A DNA stretch of 64,000 bases. Source: Candidatus Latescibacterota bacterium (GTDB lineage Bacteria; Latescibacterota; UBA2968). The stretch covers positions 2,720,001 to 2,784,000 of the forward strand of contig OZ240241.1 of the NCBI GenBank assembly GCA_965198115.1. Direction: 5' to 3'. Position 1 is the first letter of the stretch. Every line of letters begins with the position of its first letter. A program made the translations under genes and the position numbers. The notes beneath the pieces are model-generated. The model was not told the origin of the DNA and made no database searches. It saw only the letters and a program-made list of their open reading frames with translations. Positions 13,481 through 30,066 of the stretch are shown here, one piece after another.

Positions 13481-14812
13481 ATGCGCAAGATTCACCGGCT
13501 GTTTTGGGTGCTGGTTCCCATTTTCATATCTGCTTCCACCACGCACGCACAGACCGATGTCGAACGGGCCGACTTCGACGGCAACGGCATCGTGGACTTC
13601 GGTGACTTCCTGACGTTTGCCGCCGGCTTCGGTGCAGCCACTGGGGAAGAGGCATTCGATGCGACCCTCGATCTCAATGCATCGGGTCAGATCGACTTCG
13701 CCGATTTCCTCGTGTTCGCTGGCGCGTTCGGCGACTCGACTGCGCCACCTACGACCACATTCGTCTACATCGCCGACACGGCCGCGGGGGAAGTGAAGGC
13801 GTTCGATACATCGACGAATTTTCAGGATCCTGCTCGACGGCTCGTCGCCCATACACCTCAGGACGTCTTCTTTTCCGGCTTACAGCAGCGCTTTTTCGTT
13901 TCCTCGCTCGACACCTTTTATGCGTTCGACAATTCAGGCACTCTCACCTACGCAACGCCACTGACCGAAGTGTCGGACCTCGGGTTCGTCGTCTCGCGTG
14001 GCGGCTCGAAGATGGCCGTCAGCCCTGACCACTCGAAGGCCTACCTCTCCGAAGCGTTCGGACCGGTTGTCGAGATCATCAATCTCGTGGATGGCCAGAG
14101 CGAAGGTTTCATCGACGTGGCCGCAAACCCCCATGGAATCCAGATCAACGCGGCGGGCACCCGCCTGTTTATCGGTCACGGTGGCGCAAACGTGAGCCCG
14201 ACGATCGCCCCGATAACCGTCATTGACACGAATACCCGAACCGTCATCGACACCTTTTCTGTCGGCAACAACGGCGTGAATCGATTGGCCGTCAGCCCGA
14301 TCGATGGAACACTCTACACGAACAACGCCACCGGCGGAACGATCCTCGCGATCGATCCCTCATCCGGCGCCATCCTTCAAAGTGTAGATGTTGCAGGAGT
14401 CGATGACCTCTCTGTCCAGATTCTCGATGTCGGCGTGGCACCCGACGGCCAGCTCGTTTACTACACCGTGTCGCGAATCATCTCGGTCTTCGATCAGCAA
14501 GGCAACACCGACCTCGCGTTCATCGGAGGTCTCGGCATTGTCGAAGCTACCACGTTCGAACGCGTGGACGAGGTGCAGCTCGGTGAGGTAATGGCAAACG
14601 TCGGCATCACACCCGACGGATCCACGGCCTACGTCAGCGGGAGCGACAACCTCGAAGAAGTGCCCCCCAGCATCAAGATCTTCATCGTCGATCTCGACAC
14701 CCGCGAGGCGGCGGGAACCCTTCAGGGATTCGAGCTGCCCTCCGACATCTCCTTTGCTCCCGAAAAACCGGTCCTGAAGGCTGTCGCTTGGCCCGACGTC
14801 AGGATATTTTGA
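13481..14812 (+). CDS. Secreted protein with dockerin/EF-hand-like pair and YVTN-type beta-propeller
   Basis: Signal peptide ending THA-Q. DFDGNGIVDFGDF and DLNASGQIDFADF. Repeated 'VSPD..LY' blades. Confidence 0.8.
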   Translation: MRKIHRLFWVLVPIFISASTTHAQTDVERADFDGNGIVDFGDFLTFAAGFGAATGEEAFDATLDLNASGQIDFADFLVFAGAFGDSTAPPTTTFVYIADTAAGEVKAFDTSTNFQDPARRLVAHTPQDVFFSGLQQRFFVSSLDTFYAFDNSGTLTYATPLTEVSDLGFVVSRGGSKMAVSPDHSKAYLSEAFGPVVEIINLVDGQSEGFIDVAANPHGIQINAAGTRLFIGHGGANVSPTIAPITVIDTNTRTVIDTFSVGNNGVNRLAVSPIDGTLYTNNATGGTILAIDPSSGAILQSVDVAGVDDLSVQILDVGVAPDGQLVYYTVSRIISVFDQQGNTDLAFIGGLGIVEATTFERVDEVQLGEVMANVGITPDGSTAYVSGSDNLEEVPPSIKIFIVDLDTREAAGTLQGFELPSDISFAPEKPVLKAVAWPDVRIF

Positions 14813-14948: not shown

Positions 14949-16016
14949 ATGATCGCATCTCTGCTTCTCGAGCCGGGGCGTCTGGAGTTGCGAGACGTCG
15001 AGATACCCGAACCCGGGACCGGCGAAGTGGTCGTCAGGGTGCGAACCGCCCTCACCTGCGGCACCGACCTCAAGGCCTTCCGCCGCGGTCACCCGAAAAT
15101 GAAGATTCCCGGACCCTTCGGCCACGAGTTCGCCGGGGATGTCTACGCGGTCGGCAAGGGGGTGACCAAGTTCAAGCCTGGCGACAAGATCATGACTGCG
15201 CCCTCCGCGCCCTGCGGGGAGTGCGTCTACTGCACCAAGGGCCAGGAGAATCTCTGTAGGACCACGATGGACACGATGGTCTGGGGCGCATTCGCCGAAT
15301 ACGTCTGCATGCCTGCCCACATCGTGGACAACAATATGTACTTGAAGCCTGACCATCTGTCCTACGAGGAGGCCGCGATGTTGGAGCCTCTTTCCTGCGT
15401 GGTCTACGGAATGGATCAGGTCGACGTCCGGCCGGACGACACCATCCTCATCATCGGTGCAGGAGCGATCGGCTTGCTGCACGTGATGGTCGCCCGGGCG
15501 CTCGGCGCCGAACGGGTCATCGTCGCCGGGAAGCGCGAGAATCGTCTCAAGCTGGCCTGGGCCGTCGGCGCCGATGCCGTCATCGACGCAGAAACCGAAA
15601 ACACCTTCGAGCGGGTCAAGGAACTCACTCAGGGGCTGGGCGCCGATGTCGTCATCGAGTGCACCGGGCAACTCGCCGTCTGGGAAGAGACGCCCGATCT
15701 CGTCCGTCCGGGTGGCACGGCCATCCTCTTCGGCGGACTCCCGATCGGCACGCGCGCAACCTTCGACACCGCACGCCTCCACTACGACCAGATCACGCTC
15801 AAGGGCGTCTTCCACTACACGCGAAGCGCGGTGAAGAAAGCCTACAACCTGCTGGCGGACAAAAAGATCACGGTTAGCGGTCTCATCTCCGGCACCTATT
15901 CGCTCCGGGATCTGAAACACGTGTTCGACAACCTGCTCCAGAAGGGCGGTGGCATCAAATTCGCCATCCTTCCGAGCGAACCCGAAACCGAAACCGGAAA
16001 GGTCGCTCAGGCCTGA
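14949..16016 (+). CDS. Zn-dependent alcohol/polyol dehydrogenase (MDR family)
   Basis: CGTD, GHE, structural Zn CGECVYC...C and GAGAIG motifs. Confidence 0.9.
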   Translation: MIASLLLEPGRLELRDVEIPEPGTGEVVVRVRTALTCGTDLKAFRRGHPKMKIPGPFGHEFAGDVYAVGKGVTKFKPGDKIMTAPSAPCGECVYCTKGQENLCRTTMDTMVWGAFAEYVCMPAHIVDNNMYLKPDHLSYEEAAMLEPLSCVVYGMDQVDVRPDDTILIIGAGAIGLLHVMVARALGAERVIVAGKRENRLKLAWAVGADAVIDAETENTFERVKELTQGLGADVVIECTGQLAVWEETPDLVRPGGTAILFGGLPIGTRATFDTARLHYDQITLKGVFHYTRSAVKKAYNLLADKKITVSGLISGTYSLRDLKHVFDNLLQKGGGIKFAILPSEPETETGKVAQA

Positions 16017-16039
16017 TCGATCGCGACACAAAGCAACCT

Positions 16040-17089
16040 CTGATTCCGTCCCTCACGCGCGTCGCCCGGATCTACGATCTGGGCGACGTTCGCATTGAAG
16101 AGCAACCCACGCCCCGGCTCCAGCATGGAGACGCGCTCGTGCGAATGGCCGTGTGCGGCATCTGCACGAGCGACACGCTACCCTGGTACGTTCGGCGTAA
16201 AGCTCCGGCCGTCCTCGGCCACGAACCCACTGGCACGATCGTCCAGACCGACTCCGACCTCTTCTCCGTGGGCGATCGGATTTTCATCCACCACCACGCG
16301 CCCTGTCTATCCTGTCGTCACTGTGAACGCCAAGAGTATTCCTTGTGCGCTCAGTGGCGAGCATCCGCCATCGATCCCGGAGGATTAGCCGAGTACGTCC
16401 GCGTGCCTGCCCACAACCTCGCGAACGACTGCTTCCGTTTGCCGGAGGCGATGTCTTTCGAAGACGGCGCGCTCATCGAGCCCGTCGCCTGCGCCGTCCA
16501 GGCGCTCAAGCGAAAATCGCGGATGCGATCGGGCGATCGCGTCCTCATCCTCGGTGCGGGAATGATGGGCCAGATCCTGATACGCGTGGCTCGGCACTAC
16601 GGCGCATCCATCCTGATGACGGCCGACCGCGTGCCTTACCGGCTGGGCAAAGCCGTCGAGATGGGCGCCGACCTGGCCGTCGACGTATCCAAAGACGATC
16701 TGGCCAAGGCCGTCAGGAAAGCCACGGACGGCGACGGGGCCGATCTCGTCGTCGTCTGTCCCGGCTCGATCGCGGCGATGACCTCCGGAATCGATTGCGT
16801 CGGGGCCGGCGGAACCGTCTGTCTCTTCACGCCCTCAGAGTCTCACGAGTCGCTATCGATCAACCCCTACGAATTCTGGTTCAACCACGTCACGCTCACC
16901 ACCAGCTATTCGTGCGGACCACCCGACACAGGCGAAGCCGCCGATCTCATCTCCCAAGGCGCTGTCACCGCCGACCAGATCGTCACTCACCGGTATCCTC
17001 TCGACCAGGCCGCGGACGGGTTTAAAACCGTGTCAGCAGCGGGCGAAAGCATCAAGACCCTCATCATCATCGACCCCACCCGTGGGTGA
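16040..17089 (+). CDS. Zn-dependent alcohol/polyol dehydrogenase (MDR family), start uncertain
   Basis: GICTSD, GHE, CLSCRHC and GAGMMG motifs. Homology (ARIYDLGDVRIEE) extends upstream of the GTG at 16139. Confidence 0.85.
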   Translation: MIPSLTRVARIYDLGDVRIEEQPTPRLQHGDALVRMAVCGICTSDTLPWYVRRKAPAVLGHEPTGTIVQTDSDLFSVGDRIFIHHHAPCLSCRHCERQEYSLCAQWRASAIDPGGLAEYVRVPAHNLANDCFRLPEAMSFEDGALIEPVACAVQALKRKSRMRSGDRVLILGAGMMGQILIRVARHYGASILMTADRVPYRLGKAVEMGADLAVDVSKDDLAKAVRKATDGDGADLVVVCPGSIAAMTSGIDCVGAGGTVCLFTPSESHESLSINPYEFWFNHVTLTTSYSCGPPDTGEAADLISQGAVTADQIVTHRYPLDQAADGFKTVSAAGESIKTLIIIDPTRG

Positions 17090-17212
17090 AATCACCCTAC
17101 CGCATAATCGATTGCCCCTCCTTATCTACGTAACTATCTTCAGGCACTGAACTTGAGCGGCTTGTAGCCTTCCTGACAGCAACCCGACTCTGACAGCAGA
17201 AACCCGACCCCT

Positions 17213-18238
17213 GTGCCAGATTCCCCCGACCAGGCAGGATCGACAGTCCTTGGCCAGAGCGCCGCCATTCGGAGGGTGTTCGAACTGGTCGCCCGTGTCG
17301 CGGAAACCCCCGCCACCGTTCTGCTCACCGGAGAGAGCGGCACGGGCAAGGAACTGATCGCGCGGGAAATCCATCGGACGGGTGCCGAAACGGGCGCCCC
17401 GTTCGTGCTCGTGAACTGTGCGGCGATCCCCGGGGCCTTGCTGGAGGCCGAGCTTTTCGGCTACGAGCGTGGCGCATTTACGGACGCCAAGATCAGCAAA
17501 ATGGGCCTCCTGGAGCTGGGCGAAGGGGGAACCGTCCTGCTCGACGAAGTCGGCCTGATGCCCCTCGACCTCCAGGCCAAGCTACTCAGCGTCCTGGAAA
17601 GCAGGCGCTTCCGGAGAGTGGGCGGCACCGCGGAGATCGACCTCGGGACGCGGTTCATTGCCGCCAGCAACGCGGATCTCGACCTGGCCGTCCAGGAAAA
17701 CCGGTTTCGTCTGGACCTCCTCTACCGGCTCAACGTCTTTCCGATTCCGTTGCCACCTCTCCGCGACCGAGACGACGACGCCCTCCTCATCGCCCGACAC
17801 TTCCTCGACACCTACAGTGAGCGCTACGACCGCGGATCCCTCGAGCTGAGTCCGGGTGCAGAGCGGTGGCTCCTCGGCTACGACTGGCCCGGCAACGTAC
17901 GCGAACTCCGGAACGTCGTTGAACGGGCCGTGCTGCTTGCCCGATCACAGCTGATCCAGACCGAAGACCTCGCAGTCGGAAAAGAGGAAACCGACCTGGC
18001 GATGGATCAGCGAGGTGGCCTGTCGGTCACCGGGATCGGAGAAATTCATATCGAATTTCCGCCCTGGGGCATCGCCCTGGAAGACGTTGAAAAACGCTTG
18101 ATCGAAGCCGCCCTCGAGACGACCAGGGGTAAGGTTTCCAGAGCCGCCCAATTGCTCCGAGTATCCCGGGATACTCTGCGTTATAGAATTCGGAAGTACG
18201 GTATTACCTCGCCTCATCCTCCCGATCAATCAGCGTGA
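17213..18238 (+). CDS. Sigma-54-dependent activator (AAA+ plus Fis HTH), no N-terminal sensor domain
   Basis: GESGTGKE, ELFG.ERGAFTDA, LLDEV, FRLDLLYRL and WPGNVREL motifs, C-terminal HTH. The AAA+ domain starts about 12 aa from the N-terminus. Confidence 0.92.
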   Translation: MPDSPDQAGSTVLGQSAAIRRVFELVARVAETPATVLLTGESGTGKELIAREIHRTGAETGAPFVLVNCAAIPGALLEAELFGYERGAFTDAKISKMGLLELGEGGTVLLDEVGLMPLDLQAKLLSVLESRRFRRVGGTAEIDLGTRFIAASNADLDLAVQENRFRLDLLYRLNVFPIPLPPLRDRDDDALLIARHFLDTYSERYDRGSLELSPGAERWLLGYDWPGNVRELRNVVERAVLLARSQLIQTEDLAVGKEETDLAMDQRGGLSVTGIGEIHIEFPPWGIALEDVEKRLIEAALETTRGKVSRAAQLLRVSRDTLRYRIRKYGITSPHPPDQSA

Positions 18239-18340
18239 TATGCCCCAAATGGGTCAAATCGCCCGATCCTTCGGCATCCCGCTTGGCTTTGCGATTTTCT
18301 ATCTGACATAGATTCAATCCTTTATGGGCGCAACGTAGAT

Positions 18341-18355
18341 CGGCACGAGAGTTGC
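18341..18355 (+). promoter_or_regulatory. Sigma-54 (-24/-12) promoter
   Basis: CGGCACGAGAGTTGC, i.e. GG-N10-GC with CAC and TTGC consensus, directly downstream of a sigma-54 activator. Confidence 0.8.
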
Positions 18356-18726
18356 GTGAACAGACCATGCAGAGGTAATGCAAGCCCCAAACAGGAGGTC
18401 ACCGTGACACACCACGCTGCTCCCCACAGACCAGCGCCAAGTCGACCGCGCAGTCTACTTCTCCTATCTCTCTTCGCGGTCCTTCTTGGAGCATGTACTA
18501 CTCGCGACTCGGTGCTCGACAGTCGCTTCGAACTCGACACGGAAGATCCAGTCGAGGCGTTCGCACGTCTCCCCCAAGCGCCGGACCATCCGATCGGCAT
18601 CCCCAGCAACGGTGTCGTCACGCTCTCTCCCCTGTCTGCGCTGAAGAAGTGGGCAGGGCATCCAAGGGTCATCGAGAAGCACATCAGTGCCTCTCGCGGT
18701 GGCAATCTGTTTGCCTCGATAGGGTA

Positions 18727-18843
18727 CGATGGGGACGACGACGATGATGACGACGGGGACGACGACGAGGGAGACGACGAGGGAGACGACGAGGGAGACG
18801 ACGACGATGATGACGACGGGGACGACGATGGAGATAATGACGG
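18727..18843 (+). repeat. Coding low-complexity repeat (poly-Asp/Gly, includes GAGGGAGACGAC x3)
   Basis: Encodes DGDDDDDDDGDDDEGDDEGDDEGDDDDDDDGDDDGDND. Confidence 0.85.
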
Positions 18844-18923
18844 GGCGAGCGCGAGTGCGAATCGTGCTCGATGGTGGGAGAAGTTCGACCCGGAGGATGG
18901 CGACGAAACTTATGTCAACTTTT

Positions 18924-20343
18924 GGCTCTATCCGGGTTTCTCAACGGTGAAACTATAGAATGACAAGGTCATAGATCGTTCCCTACGCTTGGTTGTGTGT
19001 GTAGGACAATCAAAGCGAAGGGGGTGCGACCTATGACCGGGAGCAGATTACTATCGAAACTGCTGAGATTCAAGGGGTTCCGTGTTGTCAGCTGGTGGTT
19101 TGAGGGGAGAAGCTGTTTCGTCATCGCCGTAAAGCCACATAAGAATGGTTGTTGTTGTCCGGAGTGCGGCCGTCGAGGTAAAATCGTCCGCACAATGCCC
19201 CATCCGCGTCGGTGGCGTGACATTCCGGTGTGCGGGTGGAGGGTCTGGCTTCTCTACCATCCTCGGGAGATTCGGTGTCCTACCCACGGTCGTGTGGTCG
19301 AGGAGATTCCGTGGGCGGAGCGGTTCTCTCGGGTGACGTATCGCTTCGAGTATGCCATGCTGCGCTACTGCCAGACCATGACGCAGAAGGCGGCGTCCGA
19401 GTTACTGCGCATCTCTGCCTCGACGCTGTCGGATCTCCTTCACCGATCCATCACGCGGCTTCGTGAAGGTCATCGTATCCGAGGGCTCAAAACCATCGGG
19501 ATCGACGAGATCTCCTACGCCAAGCGTCACAGGTACGCCACGCTCGTTTACGATCTGGACCGCTCCTGCGTGGTGTGGGTTGGCCGCGGCAGGGCGCGTA
19601 AAACGATCGATCGGTTCTTCACAGAGGCTCTCAGTCCCTACCGGAGATCCAAGATCGAGTGGGCCTGCTGCGACATGAGCGAAGCTTACATCGGAGCCAT
19701 CCAGGAACACTGTCCGAATGCCAAGCTGGTCCTCGATCGCTTTCACATCGTCAAGGCTCTCAATGCCGCCGTTGACGAGGTCCGTAAGGACCAGTGGCGT
19801 AAAGCTGCCCCGGATGAGCGCAAAGCCATGAAGGGCCTCCGATGGCTCCTCTACCGGCACTCAGCGACACGCTCCAGAGGGGATACTCGGACACTCAAAG
19901 CACTGGAGAAGGCGAACTACCGAATCTATAGAGCCTGGAGACTCAAGGACGAGTTCGAGCAGTTCTGGGAATACAAAGCGCCCTGGGCTGCCGAACGCTT
20001 CCTGAAATGCTGGACGACGTCCGCACTCAGAAGTCGACTTGAACCCCTGCGAAAGTTCGTCAGGACCCTGCGACAGCACTTCTTCGGCGTCCTCGCATTC
20101 GTGAACACGCGTCTTACCAACGCCATCGCCGAAGGCCTCAACCGAATCGTCCAAATCGTCAAGAACCGAGCCAGCGGATTCCGCACACTCGACGCATTCA
20201 ACGATATGATCTTCCTTACCGTCGGAGACATAAACATCCCTGAGCAGATTCCGAAGAGGTTCCGCACACGCTAACCGCGCCCCCATGCCAGGAACCACGG
20301 CACCTTCACCCACTTCATCTCGTTGAGAGATCCGGATATAGCC
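18924..20343 (+). mobile_element. ISL3-family IS, copy 1 (1420 bp)
   Basis: 23-bp IRs (20/23 match; GGCTCT...ATAGCC) and 8-bp TSD CAACTTTT. Confidence 0.96.
18997..20274 (+). CDS. ISL3 transposase (probable true start ATG at 19033)
   Basis: Zinc finger CPECG, GIDEIS, CDMS, DRFH and EGLN motifs. Confidence 0.95.
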   Translation: MCRTIKAKGVRPMTGSRLLSKLLRFKGFRVVSWWFEGRSCFVIAVKPHKNGCCCPECGRRGKIVRTMPHPRRWRDIPVCGWRVWLLYHPREIRCPTHGRVVEEIPWAERFSRVTYRFEYAMLRYCQTMTQKAASELLRISASTLSDLLHRSITRLREGHRIRGLKTIGIDEISYAKRHRYATLVYDLDRSCVVWVGRGRARKTIDRFFTEALSPYRRSKIEWACCDMSEAYIGAIQEHCPNAKLVLDRFHIVKALNAAVDEVRKDQWRKAAPDERKAMKGLRWLLYRHSATRSRGDTRTLKALEKANYRIYRAWRLKDEFEQFWEYKAPWAAERFLKCWTTSALRSRLEPLRKFVRTLRQHFFGVLAFVNTRLTNAIAEGLNRIVQIVKNRASGFRTLDAFNDMIFLTVGDINIPEQIPKRFRTR

Positions 20344-20752
20344 CAACTTTTACGTCCCGAGGAATGCACTCGAGACGGACACGACGATCGAACTGACTGT
20401 CGTCGGGTCCGGGGTCGACGTCCAGGCCAGCTTCCAACCATCGGGTCTGCAGTTTCTCAAACCGGCCAGCCTATCGTTCGCTCTGCTGGGGGACGACATC
20501 GATCCCGACAATCTGGGCGGCTACCTCAGACTCGCCGACGGCACAACGATCGAGCAGCCGCACGAAATTCACCGATTCGGCAAGCTGCTCATCGTCCAGA
20601 TCTGGGTTTCTCACTTTTCCACCTACGAGCCGGATGACGGCGAGTGAGCGCCTACCCACTCACACGCCGATCGTTCGACCCTTCAGACCACACTGCCCCT
20701 TACTTGCGCACGTCTACATTCGCGGTTCGCGGACCCGCTTGAAGGCCCAAAC

Positions 20753-21943
20753 TTGAATACCTCCGAACTCAGCCGATTACTCGACAACGTGGAAGAGCTG
20801 GGTGGCGACAATGTCGTCGATCAGTTGCTCGATGTTGTACGTCGAGATCACATCCCGGCCGGTAAGGCAGTTCGTCAGATCGATCGAGCCATGAAGACCT
20901 TTCGGCGTCTCTGGGAAGGCCAGCCCGAAGGGATTTCAGCGAACATCCGTGTCGTCCTCAACCTCGCCGAGTCCTACGAAAACCTGGGTGGATTCGACCA
21001 GGCGAGGACCTCCTACGAGGAAGCACTCGGGGTCGCGAGAGCTGAGAATGATCAGATAGCTGAAGCGGACATCCTCAAGAAGATGGGTCGCGTCCTGAGA
21101 AAGCAGGGCAAATGGAAGGAAGCCCTTCGTCACATCGCTGACAGCCGCGTCATCCACGATACCCTTTCCAACGACCTCGGCGTCGCGACGTGTCGAGTGA
21201 GCGAAGGAATTGTACACTTCGAGCGCGGTGATTATCCGAGTGCGGGGGAAGCGTATCGGTTCGCACTCGAGATTGCCGAACAGCTTGGTAATCGACGCAT
21301 CGCCGCGTCTGCGAATCTCAACATCGGCATCCTCGAGAACATTGCGGGGAATTTCGAACAGGCGACGGCGAACTTCAGCGAGGCGCTGATGGCTGCACAG
21401 CAGCAGTCCTACACGGCCCTCGAGGGGCGCGCGTATCACAACCTCGGCATGTGTGGCATCTCCCGAGAGGATTGGGCCTCCGCGCTGGACGCCTTCGAGC
21501 AAGCACTCCAGATCTCCGAGGGAATAGGCGACCTGGCCCTGGCCGCGTCGTCCTATGTTCAGAAGGCACAGGTCTACCTGCGACTGAACGACCGCACACT
21601 ATCTGCCGCCTACTGCACGCGAGCGCTGGACATCTTCCAGGAAGTCGATCGCCCGCTCGGAAAGGCTGAAGCTCTCCGAATCCTGGGACGTTTGGTCGGA
21701 TCGGGCAGCGCCTACCGTACGGGTCGTGGACTGCTCGACGAGAGCCTCGATCTCTACGTTCGATTCGAAAACCCTCTCGGCGAGGCCGAGGTCCGTCGCG
21801 AAATCGGCATCCTCGAGTCGGAACAGGGAAACCCGGAAGAGGCGCGCACGCACCTGATACAGGCCGTTGAAATCTTCGATCGCCTCGGGGCCCGGGTCGA
21901 TGTCGAGCGAACGCAAGCTCTGATCGAGGGTCTATCCTCTTGA
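20753..21943 (+). CDS. Tetratricopeptide-repeat protein (40-aa TPRs)
   Basis: About 8 repeats of N[L/I]G...G.Y..A...Y..AL. Stop overlaps the next start (TTGA). Confidence 0.88.
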   Translation: MNTSELSRLLDNVEELGGDNVVDQLLDVVRRDHIPAGKAVRQIDRAMKTFRRLWEGQPEGISANIRVVLNLAESYENLGGFDQARTSYEEALGVARAENDQIAEADILKKMGRVLRKQGKWKEALRHIADSRVIHDTLSNDLGVATCRVSEGIVHFERGDYPSAGEAYRFALEIAEQLGNRRIAASANLNIGILENIAGNFEQATANFSEALMAAQQQSYTALEGRAYHNLGMCGISREDWASALDAFEQALQISEGIGDLALAASSYVQKAQVYLRLNDRTLSAAYCTRALDIFQEVDRPLGKAEALRILGRLVGSGSAYRTGRGLLDESLDLYVRFENPLGEAEVRREIGILESEQGNPEEARTHLIQAVEIFDRLGARVDVERTQALIEGLSS

Positions 21944-23813
21944 CCACCGCGCACACCTACTGCGAACTGACGGAATCCGAGCGATTGGCTCGCGCGCTTG
22001 CCGACGTGGACCTTTCGCTCGAACGTCGACTCGAAAAGCGGTTACTCTACGCGTGGCTGGACGCCATCCCCCATCGAAAGGAGTCCGTGCTCTTCCTGAC
22101 GGGCGCCAGCGACACGGGCAAATCGCAGCTCACCAGGAAGGTATCACGTCGCTCGGTCAGAAGAGGCTATGTGGTAGGCCAGAGCAGCGTCGTCGTTTCC
22201 AACGGGCCTTATGGCGTCATCGTCGATGCAATCAGGGAACTGATGGACAAGCTCTCGGAAGAACACGGCTGCCGAAACCTCGAAGCCTACATCGAGACGC
22301 GACCGGGACTGCAGGACCTCCTCGGTGTCGGCCCTGCCTGCACGCAAGATCTTCAGGAACATCCGCGACGCGGCAAAGAGGACATCACGCGGGGTGCGCT
22401 GTTTCGGGAACTCGGTCGTGTCATCAGGATGATCTCGAAAGGCGTCTCGACCTCTTCGCTGCGCAGACCGGTCCTGATGATCCTCGAAGACACTCACCTC
22501 GCGCAGGCCGAGACCATCGATCTTCTTCGCTTTCTCGCGGACTTCTGCTCCAACGATCCCATCGGGTTTCTTGTTGTCGCGACAGGGCGGGAGCGTATCG
22601 TAGAGGCAATCGGCGAGGCTCAGACAGAGCTCGGCCGCAGAGGCCTGGCGAAAACCGTTTTTCTGGACGGGTTCGACGACCATCAAACCGACAGCCTGAT
22701 CAGAAAGGTCTTTCGGCGAAATCGTTTTTCCTTCCCGCTCCGACGTCTTCTTCGTCAAAGCACAGAGGGCAACCCCACTTCGACGATCCAGACCCTATGG
22801 TTATTGAAACAAACGTGCAGTCGTCACGCCTGGACGCTTCGGGAAACGCTCTCCAATCGCGACCTGCCCGCATCGCCTCCAGAAGCTGCCGCAGAACGAA
22901 TCGTAGCCAAACGGAACCGAACCCAGGCACTCCTTTTCGCTACGGCTGTGCTGGGAAGGTCCGCGGACGAAAACGATGTGCTCGCCCTCCTCGATTGGGA
23001 TCATAAACGCCTCCTGTCGACGCTGTCCGACCTTCACACCGTCTATCCAGCGCTCCACCGAGAAGACGAAGGATGGTTGACTTTCTCCACCGAGTCCCTT
23101 CACGAAGCCATCTACGAGTCGATCCCCACGAACGAACGGAATGTGCTTCACAGACTCGCCGCAGACCGTCTCGAAAAGCGGGGAAACCAGGCCCTCGACG
23201 AACGCGTCGCCGGACACCTCGAAGCGGCCGGTTTCGCAGAAGAGGCCTTGCCGTTCAGGACGGCGGCAGGGGATCGTGCACTCCACTTCTGCAGCCCGGG
23301 CAGAGCGGCCACCAACTTCGGCCACGCCCTGCAGACGGCGGCAACCGACAAGGCCCGACGCGACGTTCGATTCGAGCTCTTGCTGAAAACTGCATCCGCG
23401 CTGGCCTCAACGAAGTGCTACGATGAAGCCGTCACCCATCTGGTTGAGGCCGTCGAACAGGCGAAGCAATCGTGTAACCTCGAATGGGAAGCGGATGCAA
23501 AGAAACGGCTCGGAAAGATCGCAGCGGGTCGGCGCGAACTGGGCGGAGCCCTGGCTTGCTATGATCAGAGCCTCGCACTCTACAGAGCCTGCGGCAACGA
23601 GTCGGGTCAGTGCGATGTTCTGCTGAAAACCAGTCGAGTCTACCTCGAGCTCGGCATGTGGGACCAGCTCGGGTGCGTCTACGAAGACGCTTTCCGGCTG
23701 GCCCAGGCCAACCAGAACAACGTGCAGGTTGCAGCCATCTCGATGAACGTGGCCATCATGCACAGCCTCCGGGTGTAAAGCCCGCGGTTGTCTGGACACT
23801 CGGGTGAGTGTAT

Positions 23814-24707
23814 TCAGGCGGCCTTTCGAGTTGCCGTGAGTGCGTTTCTAGCCTGTTCGGGCGTCTTGTAGCCGTGACGTTCGATGATCCACCTGTGGTT
23901 GTATCTGTCCCGAAACTCAAGGAGTGCGAGGCGCAGGTCTTCGATGGTACTGAAGTGTCTAACCCACAGGAGGTTTTCTTTGAGGGTACGGATGAACCGC
24001 TCGGCGCATCCGTTGCCTTCTGGCTCACGCACGAAACTCGGCGATGTTTGGACGCCGAGGAATGCGATCTCGTTCTGGAAGTCGTCAGAGACGTATTGTG
24101 ACCCGTGATCGTGTCGGAGCTCCAGTCCTTCGGCGATGTTTTCTTCGAAGCCCCCGAAGTGTTCACGGATGCCCTGTCGGATCGGCTCGAGAGCCTCAAA
24201 GCGGTTGGCCGTCTTGGAGGCGTGAATGCCCACACACTCGCACGTGCAGTGGTCGATCGCGATAAACACGGAGGCTCTGCCCTCGTCGACCGTGGGCGTC
24301 ACAGTCAGGTCGGTGCCCCACATCTGATCGGGCTTCTCGGTCGTAATCGTGCCATCGTGGGCTCGTCGTTCGCGACGCCGTCCTGGACGCGCCTGGAGCC
24401 CGTTTTCACGCATCAACCGGCGGACCCGATCCTTTGACGTCCGCATACCGTGAAAGCGAAGCCTGGCCCAGATCTTGCGGTATCCTTCGCCGTGGAAGGG
24501 TGACGCGTCGATCTCCTGCTGAATGAGGGAGACCAATTCCTCATCGGTACCCGCTCCGACCGGGCCTCGCTTCCGGGGTTGCCGAAGATCGGTTACGGAT
24601 GAACGACGAAGCTGGCTGTGCACCGTGGAACGGGGTATCTGCAACACTTTGCACACGCGTTTAATGCTGTAGCGTCTCCCCGTGGAGGGCGAAAGGACCT
24701 CACTCAT
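23814..24707 (-). CDS. IS3-type OrfB (HTH plus rve integrase/DDE)
   Basis: GYRKIWARL, WGTDLT, HDHGSQY and NGCAERF motifs. Confidence 0.92.
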   Translation of the reverse strand: MSEVLSPSTGRRYSIKRVCKVLQIPRSTVHSQLRRSSVTDLRQPRKRGPVGAGTDEELVSLIQQEIDASPFHGEGYRKIWARLRFHGMRTSKDRVRRLMRENGLQARPGRRRERRAHDGTITTEKPDQMWGTDLTVTPTVDEGRASVFIAIDHCTCECVGIHASKTANRFEALEPIRQGIREHFGGFEENIAEGLELRHDHGSQYVSDDFQNEIAFLGVQTSPSFVREPEGNGCAERFIRTLKENLLWVRHFSTIEDLRLALLEFRDRYNHRWIIERHGYKTPEQARNALTATRKAA

Positions 24708-25087
24708 TTCCGCGACCTCCGATGCGCCAAAGGGCGGCGGGCTTCCAGACGATCGATTCTTTGTTGCAGCAGCTCGTTGTCCATCGTGAGCTCGCCAATC
24801 TTCGCCTGGAGGTCCTTGACCCTCTCGTCACGCTCGTCGCTCGGACGAGAGCGTAGTGCGGCCTGGGCGCCAGAGTGGAACTGATCGCGCCACTCGCTCA
24901 ATTTAGCTGCCGTTACTCCCAGATCGCGAGAGACGCTGTCGAGGCTCTCGCCACGCATCACACGTAATACGGCTTCGGCCTTCTTCTTCACGGAGAAACG
25001 ACCCTGCGAAGTCGCGCTTGGATCGGCTGGGCCTCCGCTCGCTCTCGCTCGCTCCGCCCCAACCGATCCCCTGGTAGCCTTGTTCAT
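24704..25087 (-). CDS. IS3-type OrfA (HTH plus coiled coil)
   Basis: KKAEAVLRV...VSRDLGV..LSEW and KIGELTMDNELL. ATGA overlap with OrfB. Confidence 0.9.
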   Translation of the reverse strand: MNKATRGSVGAERARASGGPADPSATSQGRFSVKKKAEAVLRVMRGESLDSVSRDLGVTAAKLSEWRDQFHSGAQAALRSRPSDERDERVKDLQAKIGELTMDNELLQQRIDRLEARRPLAHRRSRK

Positions 25088-25931
25088 GGTGGACCCTCCT
25101 TTTCGACCTACTGTAGGTCAACGGAGTGTCCAAGAAAACCCCGGGGCGCTGGATGCACAGCCTCCGGGGAAACACTCAGAAAGCCATCGAATCCTTTCAT
25201 CGTTGTCTGAGGATCTACCGCGTGAACGGGCTCTGGGACAAGGTAATCTTGGCTCTGCTCAACATCGCGAAGGCATTGGCCGACAGGGGAGATACCGAGG
25301 AAGCCTTGAAATACAACCGCACCGCGTTGGAAACCGCCCGGAAGAGGTTTGACACCGCACGGGAAGCGGCCGCTCTCACGAACCTGGGCGAGATTCACCT
25401 GGCGAACGACGACCTCGACGCAGCCGAGGACGCGTGCGCAGAAGCACTGTCACTGTTCGAGGAAGCCTGCGACTACGTACGCGAGGCGGACACCTTGAGG
25501 GTACTCGCGTGCATTGCCGCAAGATCTCTCGACACAGAACGGGCCCGTTCACTCTACAGGAGCGCCATCGACAAGTCCCGCGAGGCGGGATTCCGTCTGG
25601 GTGAGGCTCAGAGCCTGCGCGACTATGGAGAGCTCCTGGATCAAATGGACCCGAACGGGGCCGCATCGGCCCGGAGAGAGGCGCGCGATCTCTTCGTGGG
25701 CCTGGGCATCCAGGACGAGGCAGATCGCCTCGACAGCACGCTTCGGAACCAGATCACAGCCCGATACAGCAGAGCGGGATGGTTCGCAGGGCTTTCTGAG
25801 CCGGCCCTACGGCAACCGCCTCCAAAATCCTTCCCTGACAAGCCCGGAGTGTCAGCGTCACAAACTTGACCCTTCGGTCATCTCGCATTATTCTTGGGCA
25901 CAATGACCCTCGTTCTTTAAGGCGAGGCGCG

Positions 25932-25960
25932 AGGTCGTCCTTTCGTGGACGGCCTTTTTT
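25932..25960 (+). terminator. Intrinsic terminator closing the TPR/STAND operon
   Basis: AGGTCGTCC-tttcgt-GGACGGCCT hairpin followed by a T tract. Confidence 0.7.
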
Positions 25961-25962
25961 AT

Positions 25963-27382
25963 GGCTCTATCCGGGTTTCTCAACGGTGAAACTATAGAAT
26001 GACAAGGTCATAGATCGTTCCCTACGCTTGGTTGTGTGTGTAGGACAATCAAAGCGAAGGGGGTGCGACCTATGACCGGGAGCAGATTACTATCGAAACT
26101 GCTGAGATTCAAGGGGTTCCGTGTTGTCAGCTGGTGGTTTGAGGGGAGAAGCTGCTTCGTCATCGCCGTAAAGCCACATAAGAATGGTTGTTGTTGTCCG
26201 GAGTGCGGCCGTCGAGGTAAAATCGTCCGCACAATGCCCCATCCGCGTCGGTGGCGTGACATTCCGGTGTGCGGGTGGAGGGTCTGGCTTCTCTACCATC
26301 CTCGGGAGATTCGGTGTCCTACCCACGGTCGTGTGGTCGAGGAGATTCCGTGGGCGGAGCGGTTCTCTCGGGTGACGTATCGCTTCGAGTATGCCATGCT
26401 GCGCTACTGCCAGACCATGACGCAGAAGGCGGCGTCCGAGTTACTGCGCATCTCTGCCTCGACGCTGTCGGATCTCCTTCACCGATCCATCACGCGGCTT
26501 CGTGAAGGTCATCGTATCCGAGGGCTCAAAACCATCGGGATCGACGAGATCTCCTACGCCAAGCGTCACAGGTACGCCACGCTCGTTTACGATCTGGACC
26601 GCTCCTGCGTGGTGTGGGTTGGCCGCGGCAGGGCGCGTAAAACGATCGATCGGTTCTTCACAGAGGCTCTCAGTCCCTACCAGAGATCCAAGATCGAGTG
26701 GGCCTGCTGCGACATGAGCGAAGCTTACATCGGAGCCATCCAGGAACACTGTCCGAATGCCAAGCTGGTCCTCGATCGCTTTCACATCGTCAAGGCTCTC
26801 AATGCCGCCGTTGACGAGGTCCGTAAGGACCAGTGGCGTAAAGCTGCCCCGGATGAGCGCAAAGCCATGAAGGGCCTCCGATGGCTCCTCTACCGGCACT
26901 CAGCGACACGCTCCAGAGGGGATACTCGGACACTCAAAGCACTGGAGAAGGCGAACTACCGAATCTATAGAGCCTGGAGACTCAAGGACGAGTTCGAGCA
27001 GTTCTGGGAATACAAAGCGCCCTGGGCTGCCGAACGCTTCCTGAAATGCTGGACGACGTCCGCACTCAGAAGTCGACTTGAACCCCTGCGAAAGTTCGTC
27101 AGGACCCTGCGACAGCACTTCTTCGGCGTCCTCGCATTCGTGAACACGCGTCTTACCAACGCCATCGCCGAAGGCCTCAACCGAATCGTCCAAATCGTCA
27201 AGAACCGAGCCAGCGGATTCCGCACACTCGACGCATTCAACGATATGATCTTCCTTACCGTCGGAGACATAAACATCCCTGAGCAGATTCCGAAGAGGTT
27301 CCGCACACGCTAACCGCGCCCCCATGCCAGGAACCACGGCACCTTCACCCACTTCATCTCGTTGAGAGATCCGGATATAGCC
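25963..27382 (+). mobile_element. ISL3 copy 2 (transposase 26036-27313), no TSD
   Basis: Near-identical to copy 1. Flanks TTTTTTAT and ATAAATTC do not match. Confidence 0.96.
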
Positions 27383-27597
27383 ATAAATTCCTCCACTATC
27401 CAGAGAACGTCTCAATTTCTAATACACAAGTCTGTGGGCTGCGCGACGACAGGTCAAGGCGCAATGATGCTGTCTATTGGCACCGAAACGTTGACAACGG
27501 ATGCTTCGGAAAAGCCGCACGAAACAGTTGACGCCTGATTTGGGCGTAGTACGTTTCACACCCGTCAAGTCACGTTCAGAATCCAACGGATGATTTT

Positions 27598-28782
27598 ATG
27601 AATATCGAATCCATCGAGTTTCAGATCCTGGAACACGAACCGGTCGAGCTCGAGTGGCGGCCCTATCGGACGATGATCGAATACCCCGGCTCGCACAAGG
27701 TTCGATTCGGCCACAAGCCGTTCGAAGGAGATGGGATTACGCTCGAGCCGAGGCCCTCCTACACGTGTGTACTTCGCATCCGGACCGACGAAAACCTCGA
27801 AACCTGCGGGGTCTTTGGATCAGGCTTTAGTCGGGAGCAAGTCGAGTGGGATGCGCGGACATTCAAGCTCCAGTGGGAGCCGGAACTCGTCGGGGTGAAC
27901 GCGCTCGACCGGGAGTATATGTGGCACAAGATGTGGATGGCCCGACGTTACTTTCACATGCCGTCGATGCTTCCACTCGCGTTGATCGATCAGCTCCTCT
28001 GGGATCTGGCCGGTCTCAAGGCCCAGCTTCCCGTGCACAAACTGCTCGGCGGATTCAGGGACCGCGTGCCGGCCTACCTGACTGAGGCAAGTCGCAACCA
28101 CGAGCAGACACTCGAGGCGGCACAGAAGGCGAAAGATCTGGGTTACAAAGGGTTCAAAGACCACTCGATGCTGGGTGTCGGGGCGAATCTGGCACTCGCC
28201 AGGGAGCTGAGAGATCTGGTGGGTGACGATATGGTGCTGATGCACGATCCTGTGCAACAGTATTCGGTCGAGGATGCGATCAAAGTGGGCCGCCGGCTTT
28301 GGGATCTCGACTATCTTTGGATCGAAGAGCCCCTGCAGGAAGTCGATATGATCGGCCTCAAGCGACTCTCCGACGCGATCGAACTCCCCGTGCTGGCGCT
28401 GGAATCGAACCTCGGGCATCCGTATGTGGCCGTGCCCTATCTTCAGAACGACGCGATCGACATGGTTCGAAACGTGGCGATGGGCATTACGGGTCAGATG
28501 AAGCTGGCCAATCTGGCAGAAATGTTCGGGAAAACGGCCCACGGTGGAAACGTGCACGTGATTGCAGCCGTCCGGAACGATGATTGGTACGAACACCACG
28601 CGAGGAACGCCTTCAAGCGCGGTGATAACGAGCCGCGTCGTCCGCTGTCGTTGGCTGAGGGTGGACTGATCCGAGAAACCTTCGAAGTGCGTGACGGCTA
28701 TATGTATGTCCCGCAGACTCCAGGTCTCGGGCGGGAGATCGATTGGGAGCAGATCGAGGCGAGAACTATCAACACATTATAA
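27598..28782 (+). CDS. Mandelate racemase/muconate lactonizing enzyme family protein, paralogue A
   Basis: LWDLAG, FKDH, MHDP, WIEEP and PGLG motifs. Confidence 0.88.
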   Translation: MNIESIEFQILEHEPVELEWRPYRTMIEYPGSHKVRFGHKPFEGDGITLEPRPSYTCVLRIRTDENLETCGVFGSGFSREQVEWDARTFKLQWEPELVGVNALDREYMWHKMWMARRYFHMPSMLPLALIDQLLWDLAGLKAQLPVHKLLGGFRDRVPAYLTEASRNHEQTLEAAQKAKDLGYKGFKDHSMLGVGANLALARELRDLVGDDMVLMHDPVQQYSVEDAIKVGRRLWDLDYLWIEEPLQEVDMIGLKRLSDAIELPVLALESNLGHPYVAVPYLQNDAIDMVRNVAMGITGQMKLANLAEMFGKTAHGGNVHVIAAVRNDDWYEHHARNAFKRGDNEPRRPLSLAEGGLIRETFEVRDGYMYVPQTPGLGREIDWEQIEARTINTL

Positions 28783-28811
28783 AATTAGGGAATCGGGGAA
28801 TCGCGTGTGGG

Positions 28812-28840
28812 CCCCTCGGCTCCGCTCGGGATAAACTCCG
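28812..28840 (+). repeat. Dispersed intergenic repeat, copy 2
   Basis: CCCCTCGGCTCCGCTCGGGATAAACTCCG, matches 10155-10183. Confidence 0.6.
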
Positions 28841-28896
28841 GGGCGGATGGCGTCCGCCCAATGTTAGAGCCCACGAAATCGCCAGGAAAGGCAACC

Positions 28897-30066
28897 ATGA
28901 AAATTGAATCGATCGACTTCCACATCTTAGAAGGGGATCCGGTTGAACCCGAATGGCGTCCGTTGCGGACGATGCGGGAGTATCCGGGGTCACATAAGGT
29001 ACGGTTCGGGCACCGGCTGTTCAGCGGAGAGGGGATTCGCCTGGAGGCGAGACCGGCTTACACGTGCCTTATGCGGATCCGGACAGACGCGAACCTCGAG
29101 ACGATCGGGTCCTTTTCCACGGGATGGGGGAAAGAAGATCTCGAGTGGGGGGCGCGCACGTTCAAGGTCCAATGGGAACCAGAACTGGTCGGGGCCGATG
29201 CACTCAATCGAGAGTATCTGTGGCACAAGATGTGGATGGCGCGTCGATACTTCCATATGCCGTCGACGGCGCCCCTCGTCCTGATCGACACGCTGCTGTG
29301 GGATCTCGCAGGACTGCACGCGAAGCTGCCCGTTCACAAACTGCTGGGAGGATTCCGGGACCGAATCCCCGCTTACCTGACGGAGACGGGCATCCCCTAT
29401 GAAGACACGTTGAAAACGGCTCAGCGCGCGATCGACGAAGGCTACCACGGCTTCAAGGACCACTCGATGCTGGGTGTCGAAACCAACCTGGCTCTGGCGA
29501 AGGATATTCGTGCCCTGGTCGGGGATGAGATGGTACTGATGCACGATCCGGTCCAGCAGTATTCGGTCGACGACGCGATCAAGGTATCACGCGGGCTGGA
29601 AGCGCTGGATTATTTGTGGATCGAGGAGCCGTTGCAGGAGTTCGACATCAACGGTCTGAAGCGTCTGTCGGATGCGGTCGACTTGCCCGTGATGGCGCTC
29701 GAATCGATCCACGGGAACCCTTACCTCGCGACGCCCTACCTGGCTGCGGGCGCGATCGACATCGTGAGGCAAACGGGATTGGGCATCACGGGTCAGATGA
29801 AACTCGCCAACCTGGCCGAGATGTTCGGGATGAACGCACACGGTGGAAACCCGCACGTCGCGGCTGCGATCCGGAACGACGACTGGTGGGAAGTGGGTGC
29901 GTGGCCGCCCACAAGCGCTGATCGATCCATGGGAGCCTCATTCCCCGGGCTGATCGGGGGTGTGATGGAGATCCGGGACGGCTACATGTATATCACTCAG
30001 GAGCCCGGGCTGGGACGGACGATCGATTGGGAGCAGATTGAAGCCAGGACCATTATGAAAATATGA
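28897..30066 (+). CDS. Mandelate racemase/muconate lactonizing enzyme family protein, paralogue B
   Basis: Long identical blocks with paralogue A, e.g. EYPGSHKVRFGH, WHKMWMARRYFHMPS and GITGQMKLANLAEMFG. Confidence 0.88.
   Translation: MKIESIDFHILEGDPVEPEWRPLRTMREYPGSHKVRFGHRLFSGEGIRLEARPAYTCLMRIRTDANLETIGSFSTGWGKEDLEWGARTFKVQWEPELVGADALNREYLWHKMWMARRYFHMPSTAPLVLIDTLLWDLAGLHAKLPVHKLLGGFRDRIPAYLTETGIPYEDTLKTAQRAIDEGYHGFKDHSMLGVETNLALAKDIRALVGDEMVLMHDPVQQYSVDDAIKVSRGLEALDYLWIEEPLQEFDINGLKRLSDAVDLPVMALESIHGNPYLATPYLAAGAIDIVRQTGLGITGQMKLANLAEMFGMNAHGGNPHVAAAIRNDDWWEVGAWPPTSADRSMGASFPGLIGGVMEIRDGYMYITQEPGLGRTIDWEQIEARTIMKI

Follow-up and report, generated by a model that had tools for sequence, protein, structure and literature searches.

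Peptide signalling through cytoplasmic receptors built of tetratricopeptide repeats (TPRs) has been described in Firmicutes, in which maturation of the peptide is left to external proteases (PMC10075063). In the RRNPP systems Rap-Phr, NprR-NprX and AimR-AimP, the gene of an exported precursor adjoins that of a cytoplasmic TPR receptor of 250-500 amino acids (aa), with several such pairs per genome (PMC10075063). Here, we describe a gene cassette with a related anatomy in a 64,000-nucleotide stretch of the genome of Candidatus Latescibacterota bacterium (contig OZ240241.1, positions 2,720,001 to 2,784,000). The whole stretch is called the window, its genome is G000, and coordinates without a contig or locus name are those of the window. 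At 17213-25960, four genes encode a sigma-54 activator, a putatively self-cleaving lipoprotein (the precursor), a TPR protein and a STAND-TPR protein. They are one version of a conserved cassette, for which we consider it about an even chance (0.5) that it forms a peptide-signalling circuit, where the precursor would be exported and cut itself, and its short C-terminal tail would be released, imported and read by the TPR protein.

The window TPR protein (396 aa) is within the size range of RRNPP receptors, contains TPRs and is encoded directly beside the precursor gene. However, RRNPP propeptides have 10-100 aa, whereas the window precursor has 271-287 aa; cassette precursors are putative lipoproteins of about 170-290 aa with a predicted cleavage domain of their own, their hosts are not Firmicutes, and the outputs beside them are sigma-54 activators, HD-GYP proteins, kinase-STAND proteins and histidine kinases. 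In its cleavage domain, the precursor resembles the MAIN domains, which share the GAIN/ZU5 fold, the His-Phe|Ser site and, probably, export (Brogan and Rudner, 10.64898/2026.05.12.724683). Averaging 158 kDa, MAIN proteins are large; they consist of a signal peptide, cargo ahead of the domain and a C-terminal anchor after it. The precursor does not have this layout but an inverted one, with a predicted N-terminal lipid anchor, no cargo and a short free tail past the cut. The same preprint states that no signalling is known for the C-terminal fragment; the words 'lipoprotein', 'TPR', 'ZU5' and 'Gemmatimonad' are absent from its main text as far as covered here, although relatives of the precursor may be among the 15,000 proteins that it tabulates. 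The ZU5/FIIND domains of NLRP1, CARD8 and PIDD, as well as the Stachel of adhesion G-protein-coupled receptors (GPCRs), also undergo a cut before the last strand, with a His adjacent or upstream (PMC3210808). In adhesion GPCRs the post-cut strand is the signal and is fused to the receptor, whereas in the cassette it is unfused and would have a separate cytoplasmic reader. As for bacterial ZU5 domains, they have been placed in toxins and large surface proteins (PMC3482391, PMC8195603). No description of the precursor-TPR pairing was found in the literature covered, which holds few of the subscription journals. If it works as proposed, the cassette, which two phyla of double-membrane bacteria have in common, would represent peptide signalling of a kind not described before.

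The precursor profile matches 23 of the 168 genomes of the window's phylum. Nine of these belong to the window's order and cover all eight genomes, out of 53, in which the TPR protein is present (E 1e-20); a genome of the same genus (G031) has neither gene, and the distribution is therefore patchy. Within 5 kb of the 37 precursor loci of this phylum, a TPR gene is found at 33, a histidine kinase at 21, a sigma-54 activator at 18, a Ser/Thr kinase at 16, a STAND gene at 15 and an HD-GYP gene at one. Ten of the 37 had been fetched via the TPR protein, and L101, cut by a contig end, was dropped; among loci fetched by the precursor alone, 23 of 26 have a TPR gene at that distance. For scale, the 8.4 Mb of G000 contain 13 TPR-profile frames of at least 50 bits. 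A wider precursor profile matched 98 of 201 Gemmatimonadota genomes (this tally includes the unpublished genomes G229 and G354, which no other claim uses). From this phylum 36 top-scoring loci were fetched, two were set aside (domain not C-terminal) and L007 was added. In the resulting 35, which are best-scoring matches and not a random draw, a TPR gene lies within 5 kb at 33, an HD-GYP domain at 27, mostly fused to the TPRs, and an activator at eight. The TPR gene starts within 1.5 kb downstream of the precursor at 30/37 loci in the window's phylum and at 31/35 in Gemmatimonadota. Because the TPR gene adjoins most loci while the other genes vary, these neighbourhoods identify precursor and TPR protein as the constant core. 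What varies is the activator, which in most cases has a receiver domain, along with kinase-STAND-TPR proteins, histidine kinases and TPR-HD-GYP proteins. Moreover, stand-alone and HD-GYP-fused TPRs are interleaved on the tree, so that the TPR part behaves as an input module.

Further searches bear on the range of the family. In the phylum of G172 (Solibacteraceae), precursor matches occur in 6/201 genomes, and three of four fetched loci are divergent to a kinase-TPR gene; in this acidobacterial form (L189, L190, L191), the precursor has an 11-residue tail and the kinase-TPR gene encodes 1230-1330 aa. The profile matched none of three genomes in the phylum of G170, and none and one, respectively, in two further five-member sets. 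TPR-based pattern scans of genomes and metagenomes returned only distant loci, 2 of 24 with a precursor (L007 and L106), and word-index searches recovered few relatives; one TPR homologue, 33% identical, bears the name Candidatus Handelsmanbacteria. Several variants of the cassette were observed on the way. At L159, L163, L165 and L184, a gene for a Ser/Thr kinase of 520-550 aa is divergent from a precursor and TPR-HD-GYP pair. Small zinc-ribbon-FHA and zinc-ribbon-TPR genes recur in kinase-bearing cassettes (small zinc-ribbon genes at L042:1135-1817, L086:9941-10321, L089:11157-11441, L092:7898-8275 and L104:9488-10146), and their recurrence may point to a phospho-threonine readout. In G002, a close relative of the window TPR gene without adjoining precursor follows a frameshifted GAFTDA activator and a second activator (L036:3791-7217); this locus is possibly a decaying or rewired copy.

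Pfam ZU5 matches 3 of 15 precursor family members, and the precursor profile gave no useful sequence match in the PDB and no NCBIfam family. An AlphaFold model of the domain of an intact paralogue in G000 (predicted local distance difference test, pLDDT, 90.7) has ankyrin ZU5 as its best match (Z 10.0, root-mean-square deviation (rmsd) 2.8, 110 aligned), followed by GAIN, NLRP1/CARD8 and Nup98; Foldseek of the precursor domain model gave TM 0.61 (E 0.003). Phe115 of the model aligns with NLRP1 1212 and Nup98 863, the residues that precede the cut in these proteins (PMC3210808), a match aided by the fact that those chains end there. With the modelled beta-sandwich fold and a His-x|Ser/Thr site at the conserved turn, the precursor qualifies as a predicted member of the ZU5/GAIN superfamily. 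The window precursor and its intact paralogue both carry His-Phe|Ser, and MAIN domains are cut at HF|S (10.64898/2026.05.12.724683). A search over 1.84 billion representatives yielded 1132 matches. Among the best 150, the cut site lies near the C terminus in 148, with Ser in 147 and Tyr at +3 (two residues past Ser) in 140, and the tail has 7-40 residues (median 16); the site pattern chose a wrong upstream position in at least one row (P0088). A lipobox-like pattern (a pattern match, no signal-peptide predictor being used) is present in 107 of 134 full-length representatives and in the window precursor.

The distribution of the putative catalytic His is instructive. Among the same best 150, the residue at -2 is mostly Gly, not His. 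In the 149 that were aligned and scored (one was skipped), a His stands at -2 in 15 and about 31 residues upstream in 134, never at both positions and never at neither. Similarly, 92 precursors from the collected loci (L105 could not be parsed) have the -2 His only (61), the distal His only (27), neither (3) or both (1), and the swap is seen within one genus (L093 versus L098). CARD8 depends on a His in a distal position, 27 residues before the Ser (PMC3210808). From this exclusivity, we infer selection for kept cleavage. Two observations on the same domain can be added. One subgroup of Gemmatimonadota (L171:4961-5557, L173:7789-8427, L181:786-1460) carries Gly at -2 and, in the distal position, Arg; its domain would either not cleave or rely on another base. 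Asp-rich low-complexity inserts in or just before the ZU5 domain recur (window 18726-18845, L002, L035 and L104).

This raises the question of what the cut is for. G000 has four precursors and two stand-alone receptors, and two tail types. The tails of the window precursor and of its paralogue L001 differ by one residue. L002 and L105, both from G000, end in 13 identical residues and have no other protein or DNA similarity, and 8 of the 13 codons differ. In addition, a Ser-x-Tyr unit is present in two or three tandem copies in the tails of L159, L166, L102, P0133 and P0147. Together, the exclusivity of the His, the tail common to L002 and L105 and the tandem copies point to the cut-off peptide as the probable product. 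When 78 loci were searched for very small genes that encode a peptide alone, 15 of the 25,990 short frames emerged as candidates, and five of these 15 are internal starts of ZU5 genes.

A product of this kind could also serve within a single cell. In such a scheme, the TPR protein would read the tail without any travel, either from unexported precursor folding in the cytoplasm or after envelope damage or force has unfolded it, and the loop would be a homeostatic sensor of envelope or export stress instead of a quorum-sensing device. The anatomy of the cassette is the same under both readings; the almost invariant seven-mers that form the Gemmatimonadota tails suit a housekeeping signal, our general gene maps note no dedicated importer, and the TPR fold also matches APPBP2, a reader of C-terminal degrons (Z 28.5). 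However, the window's phylum has diverse tails, the multiple precursors and receptors of a genome there can be sorted by tail type, and tandem copies suit a peptide made in quantity. We regard one-cell sensing as the main rival reading, unlikely but credible.

The TPR protein matches TPR_12 at 137 bits and has no hydrophobic segment in its 396 residues. Its model (pLDDT 89.1) is closest to the sensor domain of MalT (domain III; Z 30.1, rmsd 3.0), ahead of a phage Rap with bound peptide (Z 28.4, rmsd 4.1, 324 aligned); APPBP2, LGN, NprR (Z 23.6) and AimR (Z 22.6) also match. The model thus fits a ligand-binding superhelix and does not name the ligand. MalT is a sugar sensor, and it may be asked whether the lipoprotein is itself the output, a surface protein made under the sigma-54 activator while a TPR protein derived from a STAND sensor binds a small molecule in the manner of MalT. 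This would account for the top structural match and for the position of the precursor directly behind a sigma-54 promoter. It also accords with the phylum of G171: the 11 precursor matches there come from 9 of 201 genomes and all represent ZU5 domains of large proteins (open frames of 546-4112 aa), which suggests ordinary surface roles. It leaves unexplained, however, why a cut site is kept with a mere 7-40 residues behind it, why unalignable precursors have one tail in common, and why the TPR gene is the constant neighbour while an activator lies within 5 kb at just 18/37 and 8/35 loci. For these reasons we hold it to be improbable.

Control by sigma-54 was examined through promoters, palindromes and activators. 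A -24/-12 site (at least 6/7) precedes 22 of 46 precursor genes, as compared with 1/46 on the reverse strand and 38/1800 random windows. A 14-bp GGG...CCC palindrome is located 90-156 bp upstream in 12 of the 22 promoter-bearing precursors (1.1% in shuffles); since the pattern was derived from five of the 22, of which four match, the independent count is 8/17. In the window, this pattern, which was chosen after those five loci had been compared, has two matches versus 0.07 expected. One, at 18251-18264, lies 90 bp ahead of the -24 box and likely serves as an upstream activating sequence. The promoter to which this box belongs, at 18341-18355 (plus strand), is the only GGCAC-N5-TTGC match in the window and agrees with the consensus site claimed in the original prediction, an earlier model-generated note on this DNA. 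The other, at 17084-17097 (GGG-N2-A-W-W-T-N2-CCC), precedes the activator gene and is likely an activator site as well. The activator (17213-18238, plus strand, 341 aa, intact) comprises Sigma54_activat, lid and HTH_8 domains; it has the Walker A motif, GAFTDA loop and helix-turn-helix (HTH) of a sigma-54 enhancer-binding protein, and rpoN is present in the genome. GAFTDA is a listed active variant of the GAFTGA-type loop (PMC4641369). The conservation of promoter and enhancer upstream of precursor genes suggests feedback, in line with the autoregulation that had been predicted. Genome-wide, G000 contains 18 strict palindromes, three of them with a sigma-54 site behind: that of the window, C1:462007 (weak) and C1:2968771. 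The last stands before the gene of a cytoplasmic histidine kinase that closely follows precursor L001, and we infer that this second precursor locus is under the same activator. As a separate observation, the region (L001:7695-9494, or G000:C1:2967694-2969493) consists of an intact orphan precursor followed by this kinase, which has a palindrome and a sigma-54 site to itself, and similar histidine kinases of 314-333 aa are found in cassettes of G002, G003, G097 and G150.

The activator has AAA+ and HTH domains alone, as predicted, and just 39 residues precede its Walker A motif. The possibility of a truncated receiver ahead of it was rejected, as the 123 bp upstream hold no remnant. It is 59-62% identical to sensor-less activators of G025 and G026, and the three form a clade (support 98) nested among receiver-bearing GAFTDA relatives; most cassette activators have a receiver domain. 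Other sensor-less activators stand beside the cassette (G025, G026, G059, L106, L182), some of them elsewhere on the tree. PspF and HrpR/S also consist of AAA+ and HTH domains only. However, the window activator scores 254.4 bits with the PspF model TIGR02974 (cut-off 443.55), no PspA-like gene was found among the neighbours scanned, and, in contrast to PspF, the window activator appears to have lost its receiver within a cassette-linked GAFTDA clade.

The STAND part scores 43.1 bits with the AAA_16 profile (cut-off 32.6), and its Walker motifs are degenerate: Lys-Ser and Asp persist, but a Gly of Walker A is replaced by Asp, and the conserved His-Trp-Ala-Asp after Walker B is altered. Among 7993 scored candidates there is no intact close homologue. 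The protein sits on a long branch (3.04 and 1.78); for its TPR part, the nearest group on the tree is formed by kinase-STAND-TPR proteins from G002, G003 and G027 (96/95), not by the conserved kinase-less clade of family f4, a placement that the long branches make unsure. It may, with the same uncertainty, be a kinase-less derivative of Ser/Thr kinase-STAND-TPR proteins, and is likely a decaying accessory. The original prediction had given it a central part, with the TPR and STAND-TPR proteins together gating the sensor-less activator and the four-gene unit being the system. The genes do recur together: the identical order is found in G002, G079 and (cut by a contig end) G081, and sensor-less activators accompany the cassette in the five cases given above. 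However, in these other genomes with the same order the activator is receiver-bearing and the STAND protein includes a kinase, and the sensor-less sister loci lack STAND (in G025 and G026, a REC/HATPase kinase follows the TPR gene in its place). The combination of a sensor-less activator with a kinase-less STAND protein is seen in G000 only, where both features look derived. To judge from these comparisons, the four-gene unit is one derived state of the cassette, and we find the gating model very unlikely. The idea that the lipoprotein is a peptide source fared better, as a ZU5/GAIN fold and a cut site were found in the model, although in a cassette core different from the gating unit. ZU5 autopeptidases and STAND NTPases are also common to conflict systems (PMC8195603, PMC3482391), and a PIDD/NLR-type immune or anti-phage role (ZU5, STAND and kinase) can be imagined. 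No effector domain is present, however, the genes nearby encode response regulators, histidine kinases, FHA and HD-GYP proteins, and PADLOC (2023 library) gave generic TPR and kinase matches only, with none for the STAND part or the precursor. Immunity is consequently the explanation to which we give hardly any credence.

By analogy with MAIN, NLRP1/CARD8 and Nup98, it can be proposed that in the peptide-signalling circuit the ZU5/GAIN-fold lipoprotein is likely exported and cuts itself before the Ser. The short tail would then be released and imported by an Opp/Dpp-type system (G000 has nine family-5 binding-protein matches as importer candidates) and bound by the cytoplasmic TPR protein of the adjoining gene, which would in turn control an output. 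The palindrome is likely the site from which the activator drives the precursor-TPR operon in a positive feedback loop; in G000 the activator would also drive the cytoplasmic histidine kinase beside the second precursor. Outputs would be modular, with an HD-GYP phosphodiesterase in Gemmatimonadota, and Ser/Thr kinase-STAND-TPR, kinase-less STAND-TPR or two-component proteins in the window's phylum. In the window's clade, where the receiver was lost, the stand-alone TPR protein would be the likeliest direct regulator of the activator, in a Rap-like manner; this is the weakest step. Observed parts of the scheme are the fold, the C-terminal cut motif, the TPR neighbour, the sigma-54 promoter and the palindrome.

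Several points weigh against the circuit. Four of the 37 precursor loci of the window's phylum have no TPR gene nearby, and the Gemmatimonadota figures come from best-scoring loci. Pfam RNPP_C reaches 19.4 bits on the TPR protein (cut-off 26.5), and MalT outranks Rap as its structural match. The single-His rule holds in 88/92 locus precursors, the four exceptions including three Gemmatimonadota members with neither His and one precursor with both. The swap itself amounts to only 5-6 changes on the tree, and an independent-pairs test, underpowered with three pairs on supported branches (two in the same direction, one without difference), gave p 0.5. L105, one of the two precursors that end alike, is apparently internally shortened. 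In known ZU5/GAIN domains, the residues just after the cut form the final strand, and GAIN/MAIN products remain bound (10.64898/2026.05.12.724683). By analogy, a free peptide would require an extra release step, and conservation at the start of the tail may reflect no more than its place as the last strand of the domain. A broader view of the same circuit can be put forward tentatively, at somewhat less than even odds: the tail would be a free, diffusible counterpart of the adhesion-GPCR Stachel, used as a pheromone in at least two phyla, stored by a self-cleaving ZU5/GAIN lipoprotein and released on force, unfolding or turnover, with TPR receptors rewired to sigma-54, cyclic di-GMP (c-di-GMP) and kinase-STAND outputs, and with a catalytic His that moved several times.

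In the window itself, the four genes predicted at this locus are present, and deletion by script of each of two insertion sequences with one copy of its target duplication restores open frames of 287 aa (precursor, from 18356) and 844 aa (STAND-TPR). The 5' part of the precursor gene (18404-18923, plus strand) encodes a putative signal peptide, a lipobox Cys at 18494 and the Asp-rich insert (about 18726-18845, plus strand), which lies within the beginning of the ZU5 domain. The GTG start at 18404, with a ribosome-binding site (271 aa), is likelier than 18356, because the latter overlaps the -12 box. The gene is interrupted by an ISL3 element (18924-20343, plus strand; transposase 18997-20274) flanked by an 8-bp duplication (18916-18923/20344-20351). 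Its 3' part (20352-20647, plus strand) holds the remaining ZU5/GAIN-type domain with the His-Phe|Ser site, as well as an acidic tail of nine residues (20618-20644). The TPR gene, encoding the likely peptide receptor, follows after 105 bp (20753-21943, plus strand) and is intact, its product having no signal or membrane segment. Its stop overlaps the STAND start by four bases, as expected from the predicted translational coupling. The STAND (AAA_16)-TPR gene is split into a 5' part with the degenerate Walker A and B motifs and no kinase (21940-23773, plus strand) and a 3' part with TPRs (25169-25869, plus strand) by an IS3-like element with two open reading frames (23774-25153, minus strand), with a clean 15-bp duplication (23759-23773/25154-25168). 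As for the predicted closing terminator, a hairpin is present at 25931-25956 and, with its T-run, extends to 25962 (plus strand), but such sites number four in the scan against 8.0 expected, and alone it is not above chance. A second ISL3 copy (25963-27382, plus strand) sits in this T-run, outside the cassette. Rfam had no match within 15000-29000 of the window. Upstream, at 13481-14812, an unrelated neighbour encodes an exported protein of 443 aa that has an EF-hand/dockerin-like motif (Pfam matches are weak) and an apparent beta-propeller.

Both elements belong to larger populations. ISL3 has 221 near-identical full-length copies in the genome (about 0.3 Mb), 137 of them with 8-bp duplications, in A/T-rich targets such as terminator T-runs. 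The IS3-like element has 15 full-length copies, nine with target duplications of 13-15 bp; the usual target duplications of IS3 elements are 3-4 bp, far shorter. No insertion-free junction was found in two sequencing runs of one study (as contigs), which does not establish its absence. To call the system dead in this genome, as was done originally, is an overstatement. Only two of the four genes are interrupted; the activator and TPR genes are whole, and the intact paralogous precursor (L001, G000:C1:2968858-2969493) has its own sigma-54 site and a tail that departs from that of the window precursor at that single residue. G000 thus retains activator, TPR protein, rpoN, possible importers and an intact precursor, and the ISL3 element may be polar on the TPR gene.

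The window locus contributes a branch with STAND and kinase outputs, the His swap, the two precursors that end alike, and candidates for an operator and a regulon. The cassette lets free-fragment signalling and protease-free peptide maturation be probed with small soluble proteins and a peptide of 7-9 residues. If the peptide-signalling circuit is true, about half of the sampled Gemmatimonadota and many members of the window's phylum would gain a route of communication or envelope sensing tied to c-di-GMP and sigma-54, and tethered-agonist signalling would have a bacterial parallel.

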